A DNA stretch of 9,617 nt. Origin: a virus. Taxonomy: Duplodnaviria > Heunggongvirae > Uroviricota > Caudoviricetes. The position numbers and the translations under genes are program-made. The stretch covers positions 1-9,617 of the IMG/VR virus record IMGVR_UViG_2531839668_000010; one strand, given 5' to 3'. The notes below the pieces were generated by a model. It saw only the letters and a list, made by a program, of their open reading frames with translations, was not told the DNA's origin and ran no database searches. This document shows, piece after piece, positions 1-9,617 of this stretch (positions are counted from its first letter, which is position 1; the number at the start of each line of letters is the position of its first letter).

Positions 1-219
1 TTACATCCACATAATTTGCTGCCCTGACGGCAACGGGTGCGGCCTTACGGCGTGGACTTCTCCCGGCTTCACGATGTATCGCTGTACCGACTCATAAGTG
101 ATGAACGTGGCGCTGCAATTCACGTTCTGACACTGGTGATAACGCTCTTTTGTCGTGTCAGTGATATAGCGACTTGTACGCGCATGTGCGGCATGCTGGC
201 ATAAAGGACAATGAAACAT
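1..219 (-). CDS. ogr: Ogr, zinc-finger late-gene transcriptional activator (P2 Ogr/Delta family), 72 aa
   Basis: Minus-strand ORF ending in TAA at 3..1. Translation from the ATG at 219..217 reads MFHCPLCQHAAHARTSRYITDTTKERYHQCQNVNCSATF...QQIMWM, which matches P2 Ogr as I recall it, including the CxxC-x22-CxxxxC zinc-binding cysteines. The ORF-track start at 294 is a TTG extension that runs through the predicted promoter, so I do not use it. A GGAAGAGG Shine-Dalgarno-like motif lies about 8 nt upstream of the ATG at 219. Confidence 0.9.
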   Translation of the reverse strand: MFHCPLCQHAAHARTSRYITDTTKERYHQCQNVNCSATFITYESVQRYIVKPGEVHAVRPHPLPSGQQIMWM

Positions 220-253
220 CGCGAGCACCTCTTCCGGTTTTGTTGATGGTGCC

Positions 254-282
254 ATTTTAGTTAATTTATCCTTATAAAACAA
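254..282 (-). promoter_or_regulatory. Putative sigma70 promoter for ogr (-35 TTGTTT, 17-bp spacer, -10 TAAAAT)
   Basis: Read on the minus strand: TTGTTT at 282..277, a 17-nt spacer, and TAAAAT at 259..254, about 35 nt upstream of the ogr ATG. This is a motif match only; ogr is known to have its own promoter in P2. Confidence 0.4.
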
Positions 283-300
283 ACAGATAAACAATAGACA

Positions 301-1464
301 TCACTCATCACCTTCTGTTTCGTACTCCACATCAGAAAGCCTGACCTCAAGCTCTAAGGACGTCGTGAAGCCGCTATTATTCAGAAAATGTGTCACCTTA
401 GTGATTGTCCAGTCCTGCTCGTCTATGACGCGCTTAAAGCCTGACACTTTAACCGGTGTTTCCGTGTAAATATCTGCCCGACCGGTAGCCAGGCTGATGG
501 AGAACTCCGCAACGCCCCGTTGCAGTTTATCCCACTTCGCCTGAGCGGCGCGCATGGCCTGCGCTTTCGTGGCATATACCGTGGTCAGGGCAAAAACGTT
601 GTCAGCCTCACCGGCCATGTATTCACCTTCACGCGCTTCCGGTACTTTAGGCGCTTTCTTCTGCCTGACCGGTTTCGCTTTCGGGTGCTCCAGTGCGCGC
701 AGGTGTTTCTCTTTCTTTTTGCGTTTCAGTTTTACCTTCTGCTTTTGAGGCTTCGGGTCTTTGGTGTGTAACCACTTTGCCGTTACGCCGGTGTAGGCTC
801 CACGGTCAGCAATCGCAAAATGATGGCGGTCGCCGTCGCTGCGGGTTATGGTGACCTGCGGGATTTTTTTACCGCTGGACGTCACCCCCTGCCCCGCTTT
901 GAGAAACAACAGTTTTCCCATTTTTACCGACACCTCACCGCCGTTGCGTTCAGCAAGGCGGGTCAGGAATTTTGCATCAGACTCCTGCGACTGGTCGATG
1001 TGCGGGATTTTAATTCCGGCCAGTGACGGAGCGACACTGGCTTCCAGCCTGTTACGGGAGGCTATCGCCTCAACAATCGCACCGAGCGTGGTGTCATGCC
1101 AGGAGCCTTCACGGCGGGAATTGAGCGTCCCGCGAAAATCTGCACTCCGGGCGCGGATGGTGACCACATCCGGAGCGCCCCGGTGTTCAACCTCATCAAC
1201 GGTAAATGTCCCTTTGCATACCAGGGCAAAACCTTTCCAGCCGATATAAACCGTCAGGACAGCGCCACGAACCGGCAGCCCGACCTGCCCGTCGGCATCG
1301 TTCAGTTCAATATCAAGCTGGTCAGCCTCAAAGCCCCGGTTATCCGTCAGGGTCATACTCATCAGACGGTCGCTGATATTGCCGGTAATATCCCTGCTGT
1401 CGAGCATCAGCATGTAATCCGGCGTCAGCGTACTGCCTGCATCAAATGTCAGCGCATCCAGCAT
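301..1464 (-). CDS. D: Phage tail protein D (P2 gpD, late control gene D family), 387 aa
   Basis: Full-length minus-strand ORF with ATG at 1464..1462 and stop at 303..301. Length and sequence (MLDALTFDAGSTLTPDYMLMLDSRDITGNISDRL...) match P2 gpD as I recall it. Its start overlaps the U stop (TAATG), indicating translational coupling, and it lies upstream of ogr as in P2. Confidence 0.9.
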   Translation of the reverse strand: MLDALTFDAGSTLTPDYMLMLDSRDITGNISDRLMSMTLTDNRGFEADQLDIELNDADGQVGLPVRGAVLTVYIGWKGFALVCKGTFTVDEVEHRGAPDVVTIRARSADFRGTLNSRREGSWHDTTLGAIVEAIASRNRLEASVAPSLAGIKIPHIDQSQESDAKFLTRLAERNGGEVSVKMGKLLFLKAGQGVTSSGKKIPQVTITRSDGDRHHFAIADRGAYTGVTAKWLHTKDPKPQKQKVKLKRKKKEKHLRALEHPKAKPVRQKKAPKVPEAREGEYMAGEADNVFALTTVYATKAQAMRAAQAKWDKLQRGVAEFSISLATGRADIYTETPVKVSGFKRVIDEQDWTITKVTHFLNNSGFTTSLELEVRLSDVEYETEGDE

Positions 1465-1943
1465 TATCCCGCCCCCGTCATACCCGTGAATTTAGTCGCC
1501 AGACTGCCAGCCTTACCGATGAGCGATTCCGCCTGTTTACCGATATCGCCATAAAGCGCGGCCAGTGATTCATCAACGCGGGTGAGTGACAGCGTAAAAT
1601 CAATTTTCCGGGGTGTGCCGTCTGCAAAGAAAATACTCCCTGTTTCACTCACCTTGCTGATGACATACATGCCGTAAATCATGCCCGTGCCATCCAGCAA
1701 CGGCCACGCCCGGCCTTCCTCTGCCATCAGTCTGAGCGTGGTCATCGTCAGCTTTCCGCCGGTCAGTTCAGGATAAAGCACACCGGCAAGCGTGATGTTT
1801 TCCTCACCCGCACCGAGAAACTGAAAGGCATCCCGTTTGCCGATACGGGAATTTGACGGCCAGCGATAATCTGATTCACGCTGCATGGTCTGGTGTGGCA
1901 GCGTCTGGCGCATAAAAACAAACATACCTAACGCGAGCATCAT
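1464..1943 (-). CDS. U: Phage tail protein U (P2 gpU), 159 aa
   Basis: Minus-strand ORF with ATG at 1943..1941 and TAA at 1466..1464 overlapping the D start. The length of 159 aa and the U-D-ogr synteny match P2. Confidence 0.85.
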   Translation of the reverse strand: MMLALGMFVFMRQTLPHQTMQRESDYRWPSNSRIGKRDAFQFLGAGEENITLAGVLYPELTGGKLTMTTLRLMAEEGRAWPLLDGTGMIYGMYVISKVSETGSIFFADGTPRKIDFTLSLTRVDESLAALYGDIGKQAESLIGKAGSLATKFTGMTGAG

Positions 1944-1944
1944 T

Positions 1945-2232
1945 TTTCGTTACACGCCGGAAATGAAAACCGCAATGGTGCTCAAGGCAAAAGACGTCAT
2001 CCGCCGTGGCTGTCTGGAATATGACGTCAGCGCCACCGACATCACCAGCTCGTTTATGGCTATCCGCAAGACCATGACCAGCAGCGGACGCAGCGCCACT
2101 TATGAGGCCAGCCGCAGCGAGGAAGCCAGCCACGCCGACCTCGCCTGGGCGACCATGCATGCCCTGTTAAATGAGCCACTCACCGCCGGTATCAGCACCC
2201 CGCTGACATCCACCATTCTGGAGTTTTACTGA
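1945..2232 (+). pseudogene. P: C-terminal remnant (~95 codons) of the terminase large/ATPase subunit gene P (P2 gpP), 5'-truncated
   Basis: A plus-strand frame is open from 1870 to TGA at 2230..2232, and that stop overlaps the Q start codon (TGATG), the coupled P-Q arrangement expected in P2. The sequence ...RSEEASHADLAWATMHALLNEPL resembles the C-terminal nuclease-domain end of large terminases. The frame cannot extend upstream of 1870 and the U start lies at 1943, so at most ~95 codons of P remain (P2 gpP is roughly 590 aa). The assignment rests on synteny and motif resemblance, not on an alignment. Confidence 0.5.
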
Positions 2233-3266
2233 TGAGCAAGAAAAAAGGGAAAACACCGCAGCCAGCGGTGAAAACAATGACCGCCAGCGCCCCGAAAATG
2301 GAGGCATTCACCTTTGGTGAGCCGGTGCCGGTACTCGACCGCCGTGACATTCTGGATTACGTCGAGTGCATCAGTAACGGCAGATGGTATGAGCCACCGG
2401 TCAGCTTTACCGGTCTGGCAAAAAGCCTGCGTGCTGCCGTGCATCACAGCTCACCGATTTACGTCAAACGCAATATTCTGGCCTCGACATTTCTCCCGCA
2501 CCCGTGGCTTTCCCAGCAGGATTTCAGCCGCTTTGTGCTGGATTTTCTGGTGTTCGGTAATGCGTTTCTGGAAAAGCGTTACAGCACCACCGGTAAGGTC
2601 ATCAGACTGGAAACCTCACCGGCAAAATATACCCGCCGTGGCGTGGAGGAGGATGTTTACTGGTGGGTGCCGTCCTTCAACGAGCCGACAGCTTTCACGC
2701 CCGGCTCCGTGTTTCACCTGCTGGAGCCGGATATTAATCAGGAGCTGTACGGCCTGCCGGAATATCTCAGCGCCCTTAATTCTGCCTGGCTGAATGAATC
2801 AGCCACACTGTTCCGCCGCAAGTATTACGAAAACGGCGCTCATGCCGGATACATCATGTACGTCACTGATGCCGTGCAGGATCGCAACGATATCGAAATG
2901 CTCCGCGAAAACATGGTGAAGTCGAAAGGCCGCAACAACTTTAAAAATCTGTTCCTCTATGCCCCACATGGGAAAGCCGACGGCATTAAAATTATCCCGC
3001 TCAGTGAGGTCGCAACGAAGGACGATTTTTTTAATATCAAAAAAGCCAGCGCCGCTGACCTGCTGGACGCGCACCGCATCCCCTTTCAGTTGATGGGAGG
3101 CAAGCCGGAGAACGTCGGGTCGCTGGGTGATATTGAGAAAGTGGCAAAGGTCTTTGTCCGCAATGAGCTTATCCCGTTACAGGACAGGATTCGGGAAATA
3201 AACGGCTGGCTCGGTCAGGAGGTCATCCGCTTTAAAAACTACTCACTGGACACTGACAACGACTGA
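2232..3266 (+). CDS. Q: Portal (capsid portal) protein, P2 gpQ, 344 aa
   Basis: Complete plus-strand ORF with ATG at 2232 and a GGAG motif 9 nt upstream. The sequence (MSKKKGKTPQPAVKTMTASAPKMEAFTFGEPVPVLDRRDILDYVECISNGRWYEPP...) and length match P2 gpQ as I recall it. It lies next to cos and is oriented away from it, as in P2. Confidence 0.9.
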   Translation: MSKKKGKTPQPAVKTMTASAPKMEAFTFGEPVPVLDRRDILDYVECISNGRWYEPPVSFTGLAKSLRAAVHHSSPIYVKRNILASTFLPHPWLSQQDFSRFVLDFLVFGNAFLEKRYSTTGKVIRLETSPAKYTRRGVEEDVYWWVPSFNEPTAFTPGSVFHLLEPDINQELYGLPEYLSALNSAWLNESATLFRRKYYENGAHAGYIMYVTDAVQDRNDIEMLRENMVKSKGRNNFKNLFLYAPHGKADGIKIIPLSEVATKDDFFNIKKASAADLLDAHRIPFQLMGGKPENVGSLGDIEKVAKVFVRNELIPLQDRIREINGWLGQEVIRFKNYSLDTDND

Positions 3267-3270
3267 ACAT

Positions 3271-3293
3271 CGCCGCCTGCGGGCGGCTTTTTT
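3271..3293 (+). terminator. Rho-independent terminator downstream of Q
   Basis: GC-rich hairpin GCCGCC-TGCG-GGCGGC (3272-3287) followed directly by a T6 run (3288-3293), 5 nt after the Q stop codon. Confidence 0.65.
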
Positions 3294-3435
3294 ACAACCC
3301 GCCATCACGCCCTCACACGCTCACCACCGCACAAAACAGCCCGCAGACACACCAACGCCCCGGCTAACAATCTAAACGCCATCACGACGCGCTCAGACGC
3401 TGAAAAAATAAAATCAGCACCACCGCCAGCGCGCA

Positions 3436-3454
3436 GTGCTTTCCCCGCCTCGCC
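3436..3454. other. P2-type cos site (19-nt cohesive-end sequence, joined form)
   Basis: The plus strand reads GTGCTTTCCCCGCCTCGCC, the reverse complement of the P2 19-nt cohesive end GGCGAGGCGGGGAAAGCAC as I recall it. It lies about 170 nt beyond the Q stop, the same relative position as at the P2 left end. Confidence 0.75.
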
Positions 3455-3541
3455 CGCCCGCTTCATGGGGCAGTTTGAATGCAGTTGAATCACTATCTTT
3501 AACCCGCACCAACACTACCTGAAGCTCATCAAAAAGATATT

Positions 3542-3580
3542 TTGAAACAAATGCATTATCATGCAACGTAACCATACAAT
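3542..3580 (+). promoter_or_regulatory. Candidate promoter region for the cargo ORF (TTGAAA -35-like at 3542-3547; TACAAT -10-like at 3575-3580)
   Basis: AT-rich region upstream of the cargo ATG at 3620 with individually good hexamers, but their spacing is not canonical. A strong AGGA ribosome-binding site lies at 3611-3614. Confidence 0.25.
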
Positions 3581-3619
3581 ATTGAGAATTGTGTTCTAGA
3601 AAAATCCAGAAGGAAAAAC

Positions 3620-4414
3620 ATGCAGATCAAAAAAGGAACAGTCTGGCATACTTACACAACCCAGTCACCAACATATGACAATGCGGAGGAAACTGCATCG
3701 CAATTAATCAAAACAGGTATGTTTTTGGCGATTTTAACCCCTGATAACACTTTTAAGTGTCTTTCAGGCTGTAATGTGTTATCAACAAAGTTATCAATGA
3801 AATACGAGAATAATGGAGTTAGCGTCAATTTGGGTGATGCTAATTTTTTAAACTCTCCCGGCTTATGCGATTTAACAATCCATTCATTCTACAATTGTAT
3901 CAACTTGAGACTATCAGAAAACAAACTATTCCATATCACAGAGCAATCATATTACAACAACATTATTTGTTGTCAAAAACCCATTTTATTTGGTTGCGGA
4001 GAAAATGAGTTTTTCTTAATTCCAATAATACGCCTATATCGAAATGGCATATCCCATATAACTTTCATCGACGAAGAACGTTATGATAATGAATTAAATT
4101 ATTTCATTGACACAAAAATAAATCTCCCTTTTAATGCCAGCAGTTCAATCATTGCCAGCACGGAGTATACAAACAGAGTCATTGAGCTTGACTTATCACC
4201 AATGAATTTGGTCCAGCGAGTTATAGCCAAGAGATTATTGTCAACACAAATCAAACAGGTGGAAGTAAAATCAAGAGATATATCTTGCGACAACTTAACA
4301 ATCAATGGAAAATATATTAACTACGCAAAAGAATTTGAACTACAAAATAGCTTAAGCGATATCGCTCGCACCACAATAGCAATAATTCACAACACATTAA
4401 GAAAAAAACACTAA
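3620..4414 (+). CDS. Hypothetical protein, 264 codons: N-terminal segment of a frameshift-split low-GC cargo ORF of unknown function
   Basis: ATG at 3620 preceded by AGGA with a 5-nt spacer. GC is about 30-40%, against about 55% in the flanking phage genes. I find no Walker A, HUH, reverse-transcriptase or other motif I recognise. The frame ends at TAA 4412-4414, just after an A7 run (4402-4408). Confidence 0.7.
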   Translation: MQIKKGTVWHTYTTQSPTYDNAEETASQLIKTGMFLAILTPDNTFKCLSGCNVLSTKLSMKYENNGVSVNLGDANFLNSPGLCDLTIHSFYNCINLRLSENKLFHITEQSYYNNIICCQKPILFGCGENEFFLIPIIRLYRNGISHITFIDEERYDNELNYFIDTKINLPFNASSSIIASTEYTNRVIELDLSPMNLVQRVIAKRLLSTQIKQVEVKSRDISCDNLTINGKYINYAKEFELQNSLSDIARTTIAIIHNTLRKKH

Positions 4415-5232
4415 AAGATATTTTATTTGGCAGAAAAACAACAGACTTCTATCATGGATGGCAAGGGAAACCTAATATTTATATTTTTAGCCATGACAAC
4501 CAAAAAAGCAACGCCAATAAAAATAGCAAATACAACAAACAATTAATATCTTCACTATTAAGCAAGAGCACTTTTTTTAATGATGAAAAAGACAAGCAAA
4601 ATCACATCGACCTCAGAGTATTTAATGACTTTAATTATTATTCAGAGCAAGGAGCAACCCTCACACTATGTTCAAAAAAAGTAGAATTTAAAAACATCAC
4701 AGATTCGTATTCCGAATCAAATATCATATGGGACAACCAAGTAAAAAGTGACCTGAGAGATTTTATATCTTTTTTTTACGAATCCAAAATAGAACAAGTC
4801 AAGAATGAGAACAACCATATTGGCCTAGCCACAACCCAAGAGGAAATCATTCAATTTGAGGAATGGTTAAGAGTCTTTTCAAAAAAATATGGAGAAATAC
4901 AAAACATTATATCCAACAACGTCCAGTCAAATGATTTAGAACTGGCTCGAAAGAACCTTGCCAAAATGTTAAAATCAAGAATGCAAGTTATAAAACTAAA
5001 AGATGCAAGCAAAAACGAAATAAGCAACAGGAATATTACTATAACGTTTGGCTTAGTTGCCTCAACATCTCTCTCACCTGTGATAACGAAACCACTCTTT
5101 GAAAACTCAGGTATTACCAAGATAATAAAACATCTTAATCTAGGTGGCTATACAGAAACCATTTATTATATTTTTTCCGCTATTTTTGTATCAGTAGTAT
5201 TATTGTTCATCAATAAACTCAACAGAAAATAA
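4408..5232 (+). CDS. Continuation of the cargo ORF in the -1 frame (~274 codons, no start codon of its own before 4966); predicted C-terminal transmembrane helix
   Basis: My manual translation shows this frame free of stop codons from 4351 to TAA at 5230-5232 (293 codons), in sequence where stops should be frequent. It contains no ATG, GTG or TTG until 4966, so the 88-aa ORF in the track (4966..5232) is only the tail of a longer coding frame. It overlaps the end of the upstream frame across 4351-4414. The C-terminus ...TIYYIFSAIFVSVVLLFINKL is a hydrophobic stretch of helix length. Confidence 0.6.
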   Translation, partial: TLKDILFGRKTTDFYHGWQGKPNIYIFSHDNQKSNANKNSKYNKQLISSLLSKSTFFNDEKDKQNHIDLRVFNDFNYYSEQGATLTLCSKKVEFKNITDSYSESNIIWDNQVKSDLRDFISFFYESKIEQVKNENNHIGLATTQEEIIQFEEWLRVFSKKYGEIQNIISNNVQSNDLELARKNLAKMLKSRMQVIKLKDASKNEISNRNITITFGLVASTSLSPVITKPLFENSGITKIIKHLNLGGYTETIYYIFSAIFVSVVLLFINKLNRK

Positions 5233-5764
5233 TCTCCTACCCCTGCGTTTATAAGTGGGGGTATAAATTACAAAATAGAACCTACATACCCATAACAAAA
5301 TAAATGATTTTTCATCAGAGGGCTTACACTCTCTTTGCACGCCAGTCACAACATCTTACTCTATTTCAAGGAACTATCTTCTTTACTGATGATTTTGTTT
5401 TCTTATACCATGCATTAACCCCCCAGGATTTTCCCGAAACCTCATAGCCATATTAGTGAATAACACCGCCATCAGACAAAATAAGCATCTATGACACATG
5501 AGAATTAATCCGCTTGACACAAGAAGCACCCACCCTGTGATTTTTGAAACATTAACTGATTATTTTTATTACTTGGCTCACGATGAGTTATACTTCGACA
5601 GAAGGTCACTCACAATGATTTTCTTAGCCAAATTAGATGCTCTTTTATATTTGAGTTAAATTACATGCTAACGATTCAATATAATTTAGTCTTCTATTTC
5701 AGTATACTATTGACCTTCTTCTGCCTTAGAGTCGCTCTGCATACCAAATTAGTTGTGTTTTTAC

Positions 5765-8041
5765 TCAAATGGATAACGAGAATCCCGGCCACTCATCAGC
5801 GACCGGATACGTGAATTTTTTCCCGTCGTAATTTACGGTTGCCCCACGCGCCAGCGCCTCAAGCTCCCATCGCTGAGGCCTGATACCATTCTGAACAAGG
5901 TCAACGCGGATACGGGTGATTTGCATTCGTTCCGACCGGGTCAGTCTGGCCGACGGTGCAATTTCATGTGTTTTTAACGGACTTCCGTTTCTTTGCTGAC
6001 GATTTGGTGTTTTCAGACCGTGTTTTAATGCTCCCCTGAGCGCCCTCACGACCTCCGGGTCATTCCATTCGATAACACCGTCATCAACCAGATTTAGCAC
6101 TGCTGCAGCGTGCTCAGAAGGTGTGGGAGCCGGTAACGAAGCATCACTACCGGTGAGCTTTCCACAGTTATTGACAGGACTCCGAGGCGCGGCGATGCCG
6201 CTTTTTAAAGTCAAAGGCTCAACGACCGGAACTTTCGGCACAATGCGCCAGTCCGTCGTTCTGGTGATATGAATATGACGCGCGCCGAGATGCGGCGCGT
6301 AAATGCCGACCACTCTCTCGACTTCTTCCTCGTACTCGTTAACGTCATCCGACAGACTACGGGCGACCCTGACAGTCTGACAATCGCGCGGGACATTTGC
6401 CCCGCCCTGCGCGCTGATATACAGCGCAAAATCACCACTGTCTGCGGCGGCGCGTGCAGCCTCGACGCGCTCGTCAAACTCATCAGCAATGCTGACGCCG
6501 CGAGGCAATTTGCGTAGTTCACGGTAAGCCCCCATTGTCGGCAGGCCAACCGTTTTAAATTGCGGAATGCGCCACGTTGACGCCCATGCGGTAACAGCCG
6601 CTGCAGTGTCTTTCAGCGGCCTGCCGGTGTCGTTATCGAGCTGACCATCCAGTGCATAGCCGTCGATGTTTTTTGAAATGTATTTCGCGATATATCCCGC
6701 AGCACCGCCCCGGTTAAGGTGTTTTGCCTGAAAACGGTTTCGCGCGGCTCCTCTTTCGTCGCCATCCTCTTTGAGCGCATAGCGACGCATGATTTCGATA
6801 ATCTGGTTACGCTGGCGTGGATGACAAAAAAGCATCATATGCCAGTGCGGCGTTCCGTCGTGGTGTGGCTCGACGACTCGCAAACCGTAGACCTGTAAAT
6901 CATTATCCTTGAATGCCGTGCGCATCAGGCTCCAGATACGGCAGAGATAACGCTGCGCATCCTTTGGATTAAATGCCTCATCGTTCCAGCCGTGATTAAG
7001 CTGAACGGTTTTACTTTCGCCTTTTCCGACCTGACGTGTCGGGTGATACTTTGACGGCGCGGTCAGCGTGATAAACATCCCCACATCACCCTCTGCGGCG
7101 GCGTAACGCTCAATACCGGCAATGGTGTTCATCAGCTCCATCCGGCGAATTTCAGGATTAGAAATACTGCCCATCACCTTACTGATAAGGTCGATGCGCT
7201 CGCCGGTTTCCCTGTTTTCAAGGTCACACGATTTAAGAAATTCCAGATTTGCCTGGCGGCGCGCACGCACATCACGAATGGCGTGTTTACTGGCATAAGG
7301 AGAACGGTCTTTATTGACCTCCCCGACAGCTATCAGTAACGCCTCATGCCAGCGCATACGCTGGCCTTTAAGCTGATGAGTCCACCACTCATCGTTAAAC
7401 AGGCGGGCAATGGCAGAATATGCCTGCCTCGTGGTCATCTGTCCTTTACGGTATTTTTTCCAGTAGAGCGGGGAAATATTGAAAGCACGTGCAGCGCCAG
7501 CAACATGACCATACAGGTGAGCCTGCGCCTCATCCGTAAACAGCGATTCTTTTTCACCATGCGCATCAACCCATGCATCGCAGAGTTCCTCATACATCAT
7601 GAAAAGCTGCGATGAGATACGGGCGGCAAACTTTTTCAGCTCCTTGTCATTCATTCCCGGCAGGCGCGCATAGTGGTCACGCTCTGCCAGAAACAGCAAC
7701 GACGCGTCGGTGTTCATTTCATGGCGCTGATTCACACGCTCAATGCGCGGCCATAAACGACACTGAAAAGTAGATGTGAGGAAATAAAACCCGTGCACCG
7801 GGCTTTTATTGCGCCGGATGTAGTCATAGCGTGAAGTAAACAGCGAGCGCAAAAAGTAAGGCAGGCGGTTAATCGTGGATAAAACACCTTGCACCTGACG
7901 CATCTCGTCACGTGTAAGAGGTCTTTCGCGCCCGACAGCCTCGCGTGGCGCGTTCCATGCATAAGCACCGGTAAACGCCTTACCGGTGCCTGCGGTAAAT
8001 GCTGACGGAGGGACAAAACGCCCGGAGACTTTAACGGCCAT
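5765..8041 (-). CDS. A: Replication initiation protein A (P2 gpA, HUH rolling-circle endonuclease), ~758 aa from the ATG at 8041
   Basis: Long minus-strand ORF ending in TAA at 5767..5765. It carries an HUH motif (PHWHMML, about nt 6830-6850) and paired tyrosines (GYIAKYIS, about nt 6680-6694), as expected for P2 gpA. The ORF track starts at a TTG at 8083 (772 aa); I prefer the in-frame ATG at 8041, which gives a length close to P2 gpA and a short overlap with the upstream ORF stop. Confidence 0.9.
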   Translation of the reverse strand: MAVKVSGRFVPPSAFTAGTGKAFTGAYAWNAPREAVGRERPLTRDEMRQVQGVLSTINRLPYFLRSLFTSRYDYIRRNKSPVHGFYFLTSTFQCRLWPRIERVNQRHEMNTDASLLFLAERDHYARLPGMNDKELKKFAARISSQLFMMYEELCDAWVDAHGEKESLFTDEAQAHLYGHVAGAARAFNISPLYWKKYRKGQMTTRQAYSAIARLFNDEWWTHQLKGQRMRWHEALLIAVGEVNKDRSPYASKHAIRDVRARRQANLEFLKSCDLENRETGERIDLISKVMGSISNPEIRRMELMNTIAGIERYAAAEGDVGMFITLTAPSKYHPTRQVGKGESKTVQLNHGWNDEAFNPKDAQRYLCRIWSLMRTAFKDNDLQVYGLRVVEPHHDGTPHWHMMLFCHPRQRNQIIEIMRRYALKEDGDERGAARNRFQAKHLNRGGAAGYIAKYISKNIDGYALDGQLDNDTGRPLKDTAAAVTAWASTWRIPQFKTVGLPTMGAYRELRKLPRGVSIADEFDERVEAARAAADSGDFALYISAQGGANVPRDCQTVRVARSLSDDVNEYEEEVERVVGIYAPHLGARHIHITRTTDWRIVPKVPVVEPLTLKSGIAAPRSPVNNCGKLTGSDASLPAPTPSEHAAAVLNLVDDGVIEWNDPEVVRALRGALKHGLKTPNRQQRNGSPLKTHEIAPSARLTRSERMQITRIRVDLVQNGIRPQRWELEALARGATVNYDGKKFTYPVADEWPGFSLSI

Positions 8042-8306
8042 ATGAGCCAAAAGCCTCTGAACAACGCTTGCTGAGTTGCTCAACCTGCGCGTTTAAATCA
8101 GCAAAAGATTTTGCGCTTCCGGTCAGAATATCGTGATGCATCAGGCCGGAAACGAGCTGGCCTAATTTCGGGTAATAACCAACCACCGCCAGCCATTCCT
8201 GACCGGCGTTTTTACCGCTTTCCGCTCTCTTTTTCTCGTGGAGAATAAACTGAAAGCTGTCACTGGTAACGACATAACGTTCGCCAATTTCAATACGAAT
8301 ACTCAT
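8031..8306 (-). CDS. Small early-operon protein of unknown function (P2 orf83-like position), 91 aa
   Basis: ATG at 8306..8304 overlaps the upstream gene's stop (ATGA). It sits immediately upstream of A in a tightly coupled operon, in the position of the small ORFs between B and A in P2. The specific orf number is not verified. Confidence 0.7.
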   Translation of the reverse strand: MSIRIEIGERYVVTSDSFQFILHEKKRAESGKNAGQEWLAVVGYYPKLGQLVSGLMHHDILTGSAKSFADLNAQVEQLSKRCSEAFGSYGR

Positions 8307-8527
8307 GCCGTTCTCCGGTAATGTTTGTTTTTTGCTTCAAAGACTGACTGACAGGAAACACAACGCGTGGCTGACGGATAAGCCGCACGACGGGCAGCAG
8401 GTATTGGCGCGTCACACTCTTCGCAAACCAGCGCAGAAACACCGCAATGTTTTACCCTTGCCGCGTTAATCTGGCGCTCCAGTAATTCAGCCTGTTGTTC
8501 CTGAATAAAATCTACGTTGTCCGGCAT
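8303..8527 (-). CDS. TraR/DksA-family C4 zinc-finger protein (P2 orf82-like), 74 aa
   Basis: Carries a CEEC-x17-CVSC four-cysteine motif typical of TraR/DksA C4 zinc fingers. Its start overlaps the upstream stop (TAATG). P2 has a TraR-like ORF at this position. Confidence 0.8.
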   Translation of the reverse strand: MPDNVDFIQEQQAELLERQINAARVKHCGVSALVCEECDAPIPAARRAAYPSATRCVSCQSVFEAKNKHYRRTA

Positions 8528-8829
8528 TACCAGCTCCTTTTGTCGTTCAGCTTCTTAAATTCATCAGCGCAATAACTGGCGAGTTCTGTCGTTAATTTTG
8601 TCAGTTCATCCACTGAGGAAATTTGCTTGTGGAATACAGCGCGTTTAACAAGTAAATTGACCACATCAGACAGGAGGTTTAATTCACTCTGATAAATCGC
8701 GATAACAGATTCAGTTATTTCGCGCTTCTCTTTATCAATACCAAGTTGAATAAGAGACAAATCACCATTTTTCATAACGGCGATTTTTAAGGCGTTATTC
8801 AGTAATACAACCGAACGAGAACAGGACAT
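8527..8829 (-). CDS. Small early-operon protein of unknown function (P2 orf81-like position), ~100 aa
   Basis: The ORF-track start at 8832 is a TTG. The ATG at 8829..8827 overlaps the upstream stop TGA (8831..8829) and is the likelier start. Confidence 0.65.
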   Translation of the reverse strand: MSCSRSVVLLNNALKIAVMKNGDLSLIQLGIDKEKREITESVIAIYQSELNLLSDVVNLLVKRAVFHKQISSVDELTKLTTELASYCADEFKKLNDKRSW

Positions 8830-9053
8830 CAAAGCACCTCCCCGCGAGACAATCCGATATTGTGAAATTTTTCCGACTCCTGACTGAGCAGCTCAACTAT
8901 CTCCACGCGGGATAACTCCGCCTTTGTGATGTGGCGAATCATGGCGTCAAGATGAGAAGAAAAGCGCGTCGCAGCGTCGGCCTGTGCTTCGGTTCTGGCC
9001 TGTTGCAGCAGTAATGCGTATTTACCGCACTGATTTTCAGAAACTGTATGCAT
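8829..9053 (-). CDS. Small early-operon protein of unknown function (P2 orf80-like position), 74 aa
   Basis: ATG at 9053..9051 with a GGAG motif about 9 nt upstream. It is the first gene after B in the operon. Confidence 0.65.
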
Positions 9054-9116
9054 GACTTTCTCCAGGCAAAAAGAAGCCCCGCACGATTAAGTGCGTTAAA
9101 AACTCTGGTTAATTAT

Positions 9117-9617
9117 TTAATGCAGATATTGCTCTGGTTTTACCGACGTCAGAATTGTCGGTGCATACTCAAACAGACTGAATAATTCACGTAATGCACG
9201 GAATAAAGCATCACGCCAGTAACATGATTCTTCATTAATTCGCCAGTACGGCTGATTGAATTCTTTTTCTGTCAATCCCGCATGCATAAATAAAGTACGA
9301 CGCTGACTGACTGTTAAAAAACTAATATATGCATACTCACTTGCGCCGACCTGACGGCGTTTTGAGAATGCGCCACGCAATTCATCAATTGCACAAACCA
9401 GTCGTTCACGTTCGACGTCGTTCATTTCTTCAAAACGCATCGTTGCGTGACGCTGTTTTAACTGCGCATGAAAGCAAACCGTTAGCCGTTCGCGCTCCAT
9501 CATGTGATTATAATAATCACATGTATCCTGCCAGCGAGGAACGGCAAGATGCTTACCAATTATCCGTCGCATAGCTGCTGGCTGTTTTTCAACGAGATTG
9601 AGCGTCATCACTGTCAT
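9117..9617 (-). CDS. B: Replication protein B (P2 gpB, helicase-loader-like), 166 aa
   Basis: Complete 166-aa minus-strand ORF whose ATG is the last three bases of the window. Length and sequence (MTVMTLNLVEKQPAAMRRIIGKHLAVPRWQDTC...) match P2 gpB as I recall it. It lies upstream of the small ORFs and A, as in the P2 early operon. Confidence 0.85.
   Translation of the reverse strand: MTVMTLNLVEKQPAAMRRIIGKHLAVPRWQDTCDYYNHMMERERLTVCFHAQLKQRHATMRFEEMNDVERERLVCAIDELRGAFSKRRQVGASEYAYISFLTVSQRRTLFMHAGLTEKEFNQPYWRINEESCYWRDALFRALRELFSLFEYAPTILTSVKPEQYLH

Follow-up and report, generated by a model that had tools for sequence, protein, structure and literature searches.

The window, a stretch of 9,617 nucleotides analysed over its whole length, comes from the chromosome of Escherichia coli O157:H16 98-3133, where the element to which it belongs sits between pflB and pflA. 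Comparison with phage P2 (BLAST against NC_001895) resolves four collinear blocks of 96–97.5% nucleotide and 95–100% amino acid identity; the P2 gene order is preserved (ogr-D-U ... P-Q-cos ... A ... B-cox-C-int), with a tyrosine integrase beside a repeated att core. This 13-nt core, GTCAGTTATTGGT, is found at both ends of the element, at L001 11875 and 24971, and the distance between the two cores gives a true length of 13,096 bp. A first-pass annotation of the window had described a deletion derivative of a P2-family prophage, roughly 12–13 kb in size, and had asked for the prophage ends; the BLAST comparison and the collinear genes bear out that description, and the att cores, flanked by pflB and pflA, supply the ends and the exact size. 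At attR the native ATG of pflA has become AAG, and the annotated PflA start lies 19 codons upstream, in phage DNA. The int ORF encodes 331 aa and matched tyrosine-recombinase models, although below their curated cut-offs. All ORFs of the element were assigned, to P2 core genes, to IS30 or to a single cargo gene; an Rfam search of the window found no RNA families. Coordinates are collected in Table 1.

Table 1. Features of the window, with their correspondence to phage P2.
Feature	Position	Strand	Remarks
ogr, late-gene activator, 72 aa	1..219	-	72/72 aa identical to P2 Ogr; RefSeq name ogrK
D, tail gene, 387 aa, full length	301..1464	-	382/387 aa identical to P2 gpD
U, tail gene, 159 aa, full length	1464..1943	-	155/159 aa identical to P2 gpU
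Deletion junction	1948..1953		P2 nt ~22302 (just upstream of U start) joined to P2 nt ~1505 (within P); BLAST against P2
P', terminase large-subunit gene, last 94 codons, pseudogene	1948..2232	+	94/94 aa identical to P2 gpP C-terminus; RefSeq: partial, N-terminus missing
Q, portal gene, 344 aa, full length	2232..3266	+	339/344 aa identical to P2 gpQ
tQ-like intrinsic terminator	3272..3287	+	GC stem and T-run; counterpart of P2 tQ
cos, cohesive-end site, 19-mer	3436..3454	-	exact reverse complement of P2 cos GGCGAGGCGGGGAAAGCAC
Hotspot cargo gene at tin/old position	3620..5232	+	537 aa in RefSeq record; frameshifted in window, 264-aa ORF 3620-4414
A, replication initiator, HUH nickase, 758 aa, ori within gene	5765..8041	-	733/758 aa identical to P2 gpA
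ori nick region within A	6150..6215	-	65/66 nt identical to P2 29860-29925, annotated nick site 29892 included
orf83, orf82 (TraR/DksA-like), orf81, orf80, small early genes	8031..9053	-	89/91, 73/74, 95/100 and 73/74 aa identical to P2
B, replication gene, 166 aa	9117..9617	-	164/166 aa identical to P2 gpB; start codon at window end

What remains of P2 is the lysogeny module (int, C, cox), the replication module, Q, U and D, ogr, cos and one hotspot cargo gene. The retained full-length genes each begin with ATG and run without an internal stop, and the products of orf80–83 have 95–99% amino acid identity to P2. The int, C, cox, A and B reading frames are open, including those of A, B and int, where inactivating mutations would have told against the first-pass proposal. 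An internal deletion of 20.8 kb has removed P2 nt 1506–22301, comprising the N-terminal 496 codons of P and then O through T, so that head, lysis and most tail genes are gone; by BLAST against P2 the complete morphogenetic and lysis module (P, O, N, M, L, X, Y, K, R, S, V, W, J, I, H, G, FI, FII, E, T) is absent. Because this segment is missing, the element is a defective prophage and not a phage. Packaging and structural genes had been reported as missing, which stands with the correction that the last 285 nt of P survive. The claims that cos is intact and that Q, U, D and ogr are full length hold without amendment. The cos site lies between Q and the tin/old hotspot. Q, U and D are three late genes left without their promoters, that of Q (PP) having gone with the PP/PO region (P2 3016–3127) inside the deletion.

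The B-A operon had likewise been described as intact, with HUH and paired-tyrosine motifs in A. Both genes and both motifs are kept (HWHMMLF for HUH; YIAKYISK, with the YxxxY spacing, for the paired tyrosines), but an IS30 copy of 1,221 bp (L001 21651–22871, CT target duplication) stands between the operon and its early promoter. It is inserted between orf78' and B, co-directional with the operon, and lies just outside the window, at 39 nt from the right edge and 32 nt upstream of the B start codon, or 34 nt with the CT repeat counted. Judged by this position, IS30 would cut B-A off from the early promoter Pe-cox. Between cox and A only one promoter-like match was found, inside B, and none at the IS30/B boundary that could act as a replacement. 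A simple terminator scan of IS30 found no intrinsic terminator, and read-through of the insertion, or an outward IS30 promoter, might still drive B-A. The reading frames on which excision and replication depend are all uninterrupted; apart from effects of position, therefore, nothing in the element is irreversibly dead, a point which counts against reading it as decayed.

The cargo region stands out by its base composition, with 31–35% GC against 52–57% in the flanks. The gene is shorter in the window than in the RefSeq record because the window has a run of A7 at 4402–4408 where the record has A8. Its product is a full-length match to phrog_24946, a family of unknown function; Pfam, PADLOC and NCBIfam searches gave no family, and no recognised defence domain. 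The same cargo, at about 98% identity, is carried by otherwise intact P2-like prophages in at least 11 other records (H2–H12).

The yegQ/yegR site of this chromosome is empty. A second, apparently intact P2-like prophage occupies cpxP/fieF in the same chromosome; its genes include P, O, N, M, L, Q and those of the tail. Its cos 19-mer is identical to that of the remnant, and the cos flanks are about 95% identical for some 60 nt towards Q and 45 nt towards the cargo. A co-resident P2-like phage, which the first-pass annotation had named as one possible helper, is thus present. The two prophages are 95.7–97.0% identical over 2.05, 1.54 and 3.87 kb, and the cargo is bracketed by 1.5 and 3.9 kb of 97% homology, which makes homologous cassette exchange the likelier route for its movement. 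Most plausibly, two homologous crossovers, one in the conserved Q-cos flank and the other in the A flank, would carry the cargo into an intact P2-like phage such as the one in this chromosome. The repressor, Cox and Int of the remnant differ from those of the cpxP/fieF prophage, so that no means is known by which the helper could derepress the remnant or bring about its excision.

The junction between U and P' is rare. With window positions 1800–2100 as query, and counting matches that covered at least 80% of it, we found the junction in one of 5,426 complete E. coli genomes; in 1,617 others of these the two halves of the query are held apart. It recurs in one short metagenome contig (L049), there beside the helper's cargo. 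If real, this contig would mean that the remnant lineage exchanges DNA, and had the element moved as a unit it would be evidence against purely vertical decay. Strain MFDS1001074 has this prophage too, again between pflB and pflA and again with the IS30, but less of it has been deleted. The proteins int, C, Cox, B, A, cargo, Q, U and D have the same accessions in both strains, and the DNA is 99.98–100% identical. In this sister strain the junction is lysC'(8378)/P'(1502) and genes V through T are still present; taking its sequence as left parent, the 98-3133 junction has a TAC microhomology. A smaller deletion at the same locus suggests stepwise decay in place, and the comparisons as a whole point to this rather than to satellite-like spread. 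At least three events would be needed: insertion of IS30 into orf78, 32 nt upstream of B; loss of head and lysis genes from a break within terminase gene P; and a further loss that began at this point in P once more and ended shortly before the start of U. The remnant would then have been passed on vertically as chromosomal DNA.

Our preferred explanation, which we consider probable when taken as a whole, is that the window covers the larger part of a defective P2-like (Peduovirus) prophage whose insertion site is the 5' end of pflA and which has decayed in place, has no meaningful mobility and yields its cargo by crossover. The first-pass annotation had instead suggested, as speculation, satellite-like behaviour that spreads the cargo. 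In full, this would entail a helper-dependent mobilisable element, excised by its own Int and Cox, replicated by its own A, B and ori, cut at cos and packaged either as a dimer in P2-size heads or as a monomer in small heads, with the cargo transduced during lytic growth of the helper; we regard it as very improbable. In its favour are an exact cos shared with the co-resident intact helper, the intactness of int, cox, A, B and ori, the size that a dimer would have (26.2 kb, or 78% of the P2 genome), and the packaging of cos cosmids in trans by P2 lysogens (PMC9942202). The lack of capsid and terminase genes (N, O, M and most of P) beside a helper-compatible cos is also what a satellite would have, and ogr could, given established P2 biology, trans-activate the late genes of the helper. 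Against it, IS30 separates Pe-cox from B-A; gpA reportedly works only in cis, an observation credited to Lindahl in 1970, and a helper would thus be unable to replicate the element; the differing repressor and Cox leave no known derepressing signal; and the element ORFs include no helper-exploitation genes (epsilon, delta, sid, psu or analogues), only P2's own activator ogr. Size, which the annotation had itself made a test, argues the same way, as 13,096 bp fits neither the P2 (33,593 bp) nor the P4 capsid (11.6 kb; PMC9942202): a monomer is 113% of the P4 and 39% of the P2 genome, a trimer 117% of the latter, and efficient packaging of cos cosmids depends on size matching and Sid (PMC9942202). 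The rarity of the junction, the sister strain decaying in place, the other mini-P2 remnants, which differ in junction and each occupy the att site proper to their int, and the presence of the cargo in intact prophages give no support to a spreading unit. Excision, replication and packaging at any meaningful rate are most likely beyond the element, though rare packaging in trans may occur.

It is also conceivable, if unlikely, that the remnant is kept because the host benefits from it. Protection against other phages would come from the cargo, as a candidate anti-phage gene, and from the C repressor; the prophage end would supply the pflA start, and selection would have trimmed the dangerous lytic functions. 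In favour of this, the RefSeq record has an uninterrupted cargo ORF, which does not differ between two strains; C, cox and int are likewise uninterrupted, the altered pflA start is as described above, and conserved defence genes have been reported from defective P2 elements (PMC13586616). However, the cargo lacks a recognised defence domain, the time spanned by two genomes is too short for purifying selection to show, and the retention of the useless late genes Q, U and D fits recent neutral decay; the convergent architecture of at least ten independent remnants, which might speak for selection, arises in part because hits were ranked by how much of the window they covered. The junction could in principle have been created during assembly, had the strain's two P2-like prophages, which are about 97% identical, been collapsed into each other, and the single homopolymer base that separates the window from RefSeq version 3 does indicate errors in earlier assembly versions. 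This we consider extremely improbable, given a closed chromosome in which each element is flanked by its own unique att-site genes, the reappearance of the junction in an independent contig, and the different junction at the same P' start in the sister strain.

The closest counterparts of the element are known P2-type prophage remnants, which it resembles in P2 gene order, in 95–100% protein identity, in the internal loss of morphogenetic genes, in keeping a cos-proximal hotspot cargo with replication and lysogeny genes, and in its chromosomal position, the att site that belongs to its integrase. Near-identical defence genes are kept in defective P2-like elements already described (PMC13586616). 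It differs from other remnants in the join of the U start to the last 285 nt of P and in the IS30 upstream of B, both peculiar to the 98-3133/MFDS1001074 lineage, and it is far less reduced than the K-12 remnant. With satellite P4, whose helper is P2, it shares small size, a P2-type cos, its own integrase, a cos-proximal hotspot cargo and the lack of capsid and terminase genes. P4, unlike the remnant, has its own primase-helicase (alpha) and replicates independently of helper control, derepresses and trans-activates its helper (epsilon, delta) and remodels the capsid to 11.6 kb (Sid, Psu), whereas the remnant has P2's own cis-acting A with B, separated from their promoter, at 13.1 kb, and no evidence of spreading. 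The P2/P4 cos cosmids that serve as transducing vectors (pACK and the P4 cosmid; PMC9942202) are a parallel in that non-phage cos DNA is packaged by P2 proteins in trans, but they are multicopy free circles of 11.6 or 33 kb, with sid and psu supplied for small heads, while the remnant exists in one copy only, integrated, and excision and replication would have to come first. Defective prophages of E. coli O157 can reportedly be rescued by others, co-resident phages helping excision, packaging or recombination (PMC2669165); these are mainly lambdoid and the rescue was demonstrated experimentally, and the parallel with the present remnant is one of concept.

As stated, the finding matters little, since defective P2-like prophages with hotspot cargo are already documented and there is no sign of a new kind of satellite. 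The value of 98-3133 is as a test case, with a cos-bearing remnant and an intact heteroimmune P2-like helper in one chromosome and homologous stretches of 1.5 and 3.9 kb to either side of the cargo, which bears on how often defective elements return cargo to viable phages and on whether remnants with cos are ever packaged.

The deletion endpoint in P is not peculiar to this lineage. Independent P2 remnants break repeatedly at the same TA of terminase gene P (P2 nt ~1502, CCGC/TACACG), an endpoint joined to nine different partners and used by prophages at three or more att sites, and the deletion endpoints have a CnGnTAnCnG-like motif in common. Possibly, though we would stop short of calling it probable, the erosion of P2-like prophages is non-random, large internal deletions arising by sequence-selective break-and-join at TA in this context, with a dominant hotspot in P used independently with at least nine partners. 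The hotspot would survive each event, and deletions would therefore nest outward from it, the outcome being convergent 'mini-P2' elements in which Q, cos and the cargo are retained together with the modules for replication and lysogeny. Should the recurrent endpoint and motif hold up across all available genomes, they would point to a specific molecular route of prophage domestication, which would account for the likeness among remnants of one phage family. A search of IMG/VR for more truncated examples, with the 2117 site and the TACACACC variant, returned only intact genes with synonymous changes.

Several explanations of the endpoint were set aside. Resemblance to the ori nick, the attP core or cos is at chance level (only an 8-mer or 11/14 nt), and three different integrases are involved; Chi sites number zero in P2; and hairpins at the 1502 and 2117 sites are not significant (DNA folding z-scores −1.3 to +0.6). 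The IS30 target here (AAAGGCT/CT/GACCTTT) is unlike the motif, and IS30 stays at junctions of its own making, precise excision being absent (PMC9333248). Gyrase and Topo IV have published determinants (−4G/+8C, −2A/+6T, −1T/+5A) around a 4-nt stagger, whereas the arms of the motif are separated only by TA, and the gyrase consensus ...CGGCGGTAT NNNN ATACCGCCG... does not fit. The deletions might be the work of a type IA topoisomerase, of some other dimeric nuclease or recombinase that cuts with a 2-nt stagger, or of template switching where forks stall at a fixed site. C at −4 is a hallmark of type IA topoisomerases. The in vivo motif of EcTopoI, TCNTTA/T, shares the C at −4 and the TA but gives no clean match in register or at the G at −2, and was kept only as a lead.

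The window corresponds to NZ_CP051001.1 2,540,818–2,550,435 on the minus strand, with a 100% match except for one base, and belongs to a remnant prophage situated between pflB and pflA in E. coli O157:H16 98-3133 (locus L001, fetched with 12 kb on either side). Its right edge falls exactly at the B start codon, beyond which lie, in outward order, IS30, cox, the C repressor gene and int. BLAST comparison with P2 produced four collinear blocks at 96–97.5% identity, while P2 nt 1506–22301 (~20.8 kb) are missing. The first-pass annotation had described a deletion derivative that lost its packaging and structural genes but kept cos, the B–A replication genes and full-length Q, U, D and ogr, and this description holds, with the qualification that the last 285 nt of the terminase gene P (P') remain. 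The cohesive-end 19-mer of P2 is present as an exact reverse complement at window 3436–3454, where cos had been placed; ogr, D, U, Q, orf80–83, B and A are all full length with ATG starts and no internal stops, encoding proteins 95–100% identical to those of P2; gene A retains the HUH and paired-tyrosine motifs (HWHMMLF and YIAKYISK); and the ori nick region agrees with P2 at 65 of 66 nt. The immunity and integration genes share just 28–52% identity with those of P2; the remnant is a relative of P2 that has a repressor, Cox and att site of its own. Defective P2-like prophages retaining hotspot cargo have been described already (PMC13586616), and the remnant is a typical one.

Coordinates of prophage features and of deletion endpoints in P2-like remnants
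Feature	Coordinates	Record, locus or strain
Block 1, ogr-D-U	P2 24342-22302	BLAST vs NC_001895
Block 2, last 285 nt of P + Q + left cos end	P2 1505-1	BLAST vs NC_001895
Block 3, right cos end, 48 nt		BLAST vs NC_001895
Block 4, A through B	P2 30297-26426	BLAST vs NC_001895
IS30	L001 21651-22871	98-3133
Helper prophage	NZ_CP051001.1 ~989,450-1,019,000	L024 29576-50000 + L025 1-10864
P endpoint	P2 nt 1501-1506	98-3133, K_EC180, H6, PE15
P endpoint	P2 nt 2117/2118	26561, 38A23CPO011
P endpoint	P2 nt 1457	01G17CRGN001
P endpoint	P2 nt 2505	GmF046
P endpoint	P2 nt 2666	E423
P endpoint, at an ISEc12	P2 nt 2342	EC2
Loci with the ~1502 endpoint		window, L003, L005, L006, L013, L021, L028, L045, L048, L049
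Partners of the 1502 endpoint	P2 nt 22302, 8378, 22409, 18756, 19067, 18475, 2513, 12757, 11317	

A 13-nt core, GTCAGTTATTGGT, occurs at L001 11875 and 24971 and sets the element length at 13,096 bp, close to the 12–13 kb estimated earlier. This core coincides in part with the first pflA codons. The gene's own ATG and ribosome-binding site have been left at the pflB-proximal end, followed by phage DNA (L001 11873–11893), and at the int-proximal end pflA has AAG instead of ATG (L001 24912–24989); PflA is annotated from a start 19 codons upstream, with an N-terminal extension encoded by phage DNA. Hence, pflA expression may depend on the prophage end.

Just outside the window, beginning 34 nt past position 9617, orf78 is interrupted by a complete IS30 of 1,221 bp, flanked by a CT target duplication. 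The insertion has the same orientation as the early operon and lies 32 nt upstream of the B start codon. In the P2 record (NC_001895) Pe drives B and A via cox and orf78; in the remnant 1.2 kb of IS30 separates B–A from Pe, and a consensus scan of the IS30/B boundary found no promoter-like site. Nor did the scan find a simple intrinsic terminator within IS30, so that polarity of IS30 on B–A is no more than an inference. Terminators in IS30 were reportedly described by Dalrymple and Arber.

A walk along the 98-3133 chromosome by gene names located an apparently complete P2-like prophage of ~29.6 kb, the helper, between cpxP and fieF, and found the yegQ/yegR site empty. The helper carries int, C, cox, B, A, Q, full-length P, O, N, M, L and the lysis and tail genes, including an invertible tail-fibre segment adjoining a Gin-like recombinase; its tail-fibre gene is split by PGAP, yet the ORF is continuous and intact at 399 aa. 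Helper and remnant are 95.7–97.0% identical over 2.05 kb (ogr-D-U), 1.54 kb (P'-Q-cos) and 3.87 kb (A to B), and their cos 19-mers are identical within flanks of ~95% identity. The two differ in repressor, Cox and Int as well as in cargo, which in the helper comprises a GNAT gene plus small ORFs.

That such a helper might mobilise the remnant in the manner of a satellite had been proposed in the first-pass annotation, and the exact cos, compatible with the resident helper, and the open ORFs relevant to excision and replication are in keeping with it. However, excision and replication would have to come first, and the early operon is under the remnant's own C protein, whose repression a heteroimmune helper has no known means to remove; moreover, IS30 parts B and A from Pe. 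The helper's A cannot substitute for that of the remnant, since gpA, according to what Lindahl reportedly found in 1970, acts only on the DNA encoding it. P2 lysogens do package cos-bearing plasmids in trans, but packaging is efficient only at DNA lengths of 33 kb or 11.6 kb, Sid being required for small heads (PMC9942202), and the remnant at 13.1 kb matches neither. Our gene inventory contains no equivalent of sid, psu, delta or epsilon, through which a satellite would exploit its helper.

Population data provide no sign of horizontal spread either. A 301-nt query across the deletion junction of the window (U|P') was unbroken in 1 of 5,426 complete E. coli genomes, while in 1,617 others its two halves lay apart, as in intact prophages; the junction was found once more, on a 3.3 kb metagenome contig (L049). 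A close relative exists in MFDS1001074, whose pflB/pflA site is occupied by the same prophage, with the identical IS30 insertion, identical accessions for the int, C, Cox, B, A, cargo, Q, U and D proteins and 99.98–100% identity in prophage DNA, but which retains genes V through T and has the junction lysC'(P2 8378)|P'(1502). The same site, IS30 and proteins combined with differing deletions argue that the two strains represent successive stages of decay at one locus under vertical inheritance. Comparative evidence does not support the satellite-like reading, and we consider meaningful mobilisation of this kind highly improbable.

The cargo occupies an island of 31–35% GC (window 3620–5764) and, in the RefSeq record, is a single ORF of 537 aa (window 3620–5232 read with A8). 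It is split in the window, leaving a 264-aa ORF, because the A run at 4402–4408 is A7 instead of the A8 of NZ_CP051001.1; it is intact at 537 aa in MFDS1001074 as well. The difference probably stems from a sequencing error at this homopolymer in an earlier version of the assembly, although it may reflect phase variation. The protein matches phrog_24946, of unknown function, from end to end, with no Pfam match above threshold and none in PADLOC or NCBIfam, and its C-terminal end is hydrophobic and could anchor it in a membrane. The ~530 nt after the ORF (to 5764) contain no convincing ORF, Rfam match or terminator.

At least 11 other records (H2–H12) have the cargo with its flanks, at ~98% identity, in P2-like prophages that are otherwise intact; it is already carried by viable phages. 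One of these, H8 (NZ_CP134387.1), is an 88,440-bp non-chromosomal record of strain TUM11352 with the Q-cos-cargo-A-B block at 98% identity, accompanied by terminase and portal genes; the TUM11352 chromosome has the block too. A better route for cargo movement than satellite-like mobilisation would be an exchange with an intact P2-like genome through homologous double crossover. In 98-3133 the segments on either side of the cargo, 1.5 and 3.9 kb long, are ~97% homologous to the resident helper, and the swap would add only ~0.8 kb to the 29.6-kb helper genome. An instance of such exchange may be preserved in L049 (OGPO01007986.1, 3,282 nt), which combines the U|P' junction with the helper's cargo and has the remnant (W) or helper (H) allele, never a third, at 49 of 49 differing sites, in four blocks (WWW, 9 H, 9 W, then H through the helper's cargo). 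This contig is either a true gene conversion between both prophages or a short-read assembly chimera from a two-prophage strain.

The sole result here that might surprise a specialist is a recurrent, motif-associated deletion endpoint, CCGC|TACACGCCGG, located in gene P at P2 nt ~1502 (window 1948–1953). Independent mini-P2 remnants of similar build, with other cargos, occur at cpxP/fieF or yegQ/yegR on other E. coli chromosomes; among ten independent lineages collected irrespective of P endpoint (table), the left breakpoints are all different and the P breakpoints clustered. Scanning IMG/VR and metagenome contigs with patterns directed at the 1502 site yielded five further junctions. A single TA at ~1502 has been joined to nine partners, and the remnants concerned occupy three or more att sites. 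Two more endpoints recur, one at ~2117 (L004, L008) and the other at ~19067 (L005, L028). The P'-Q-cos segments of 98-3133, K_EC180 and H6 differ by 40–50 nt per 1,500, the same as between unrelated P2-like phages, so the deletions are separate events. Since 98-3133 and MFDS1001074 have a common P' start with different partners, the hotspot was either used twice within a single lineage, or the first junction served as the starting point of a second, nested deletion.

Shared microhomology includes TA, often TAC, in ~16 of 22 junctions (TA makes up 4.5% of P2 dinucleotides). In a small sample of twenty distinct parental sites, represented by the P2 reference and aligned on TA, with one partner common to nine junctions and part of the junctions found by a pattern targeting the 1502 hotspot itself, C stood at −4 in 15 sites (background 0.24, p = 2.6e-6), G at −2 in 15 (p = 1.4e-5), C at +2 in 14 (p = 9.5e-5) and G at +4 in 10 (p = 0.011), giving a palindrome-like context, C(−4) n G(−2) n TA n C(+2) n G(+4). 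GnTAnC was present at 11 of 20 breakpoint sites against 7.2% of all 1,496 P2 TA sites (p = 2e-8), and the 7-mer CGGATAC, with one mismatch allowed, at 11 of 19 against 6.3% (p = 3e-9). C at −4 is known to characterise type IA topoisomerases. TA sites are cut in vivo by EcTopoI (PMC9352719), whose AT-rich motif, however, disagrees with the breakpoint motif in register and at G(−2), so that a type IA enzyme is a weak lead as the deletion agent. The spacing of the motif is at odds with the determinants of type IIA topoisomerases (PMC10117906), and IS30 was rejected because it does not excise precisely (PMC9333248). Hairpins at the breakpoint sites were not significant, P2 has no Chi sites, and resemblance of the endpoint to ori, att or cos was at chance level only.

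Insertion sequences lie at or close to the breakpoints of other remnants. EC2 has ISEc12 (IS21 family) exactly between U and P' (L009 4994–7297), and E423 has ISApl1 (IS30 family) inside gene A (L026 11137–12111). The P'-Q-cos segment of 26561 is identical to that of EC2, without the insertion sequence and with its endpoint at the 2117 hotspot.
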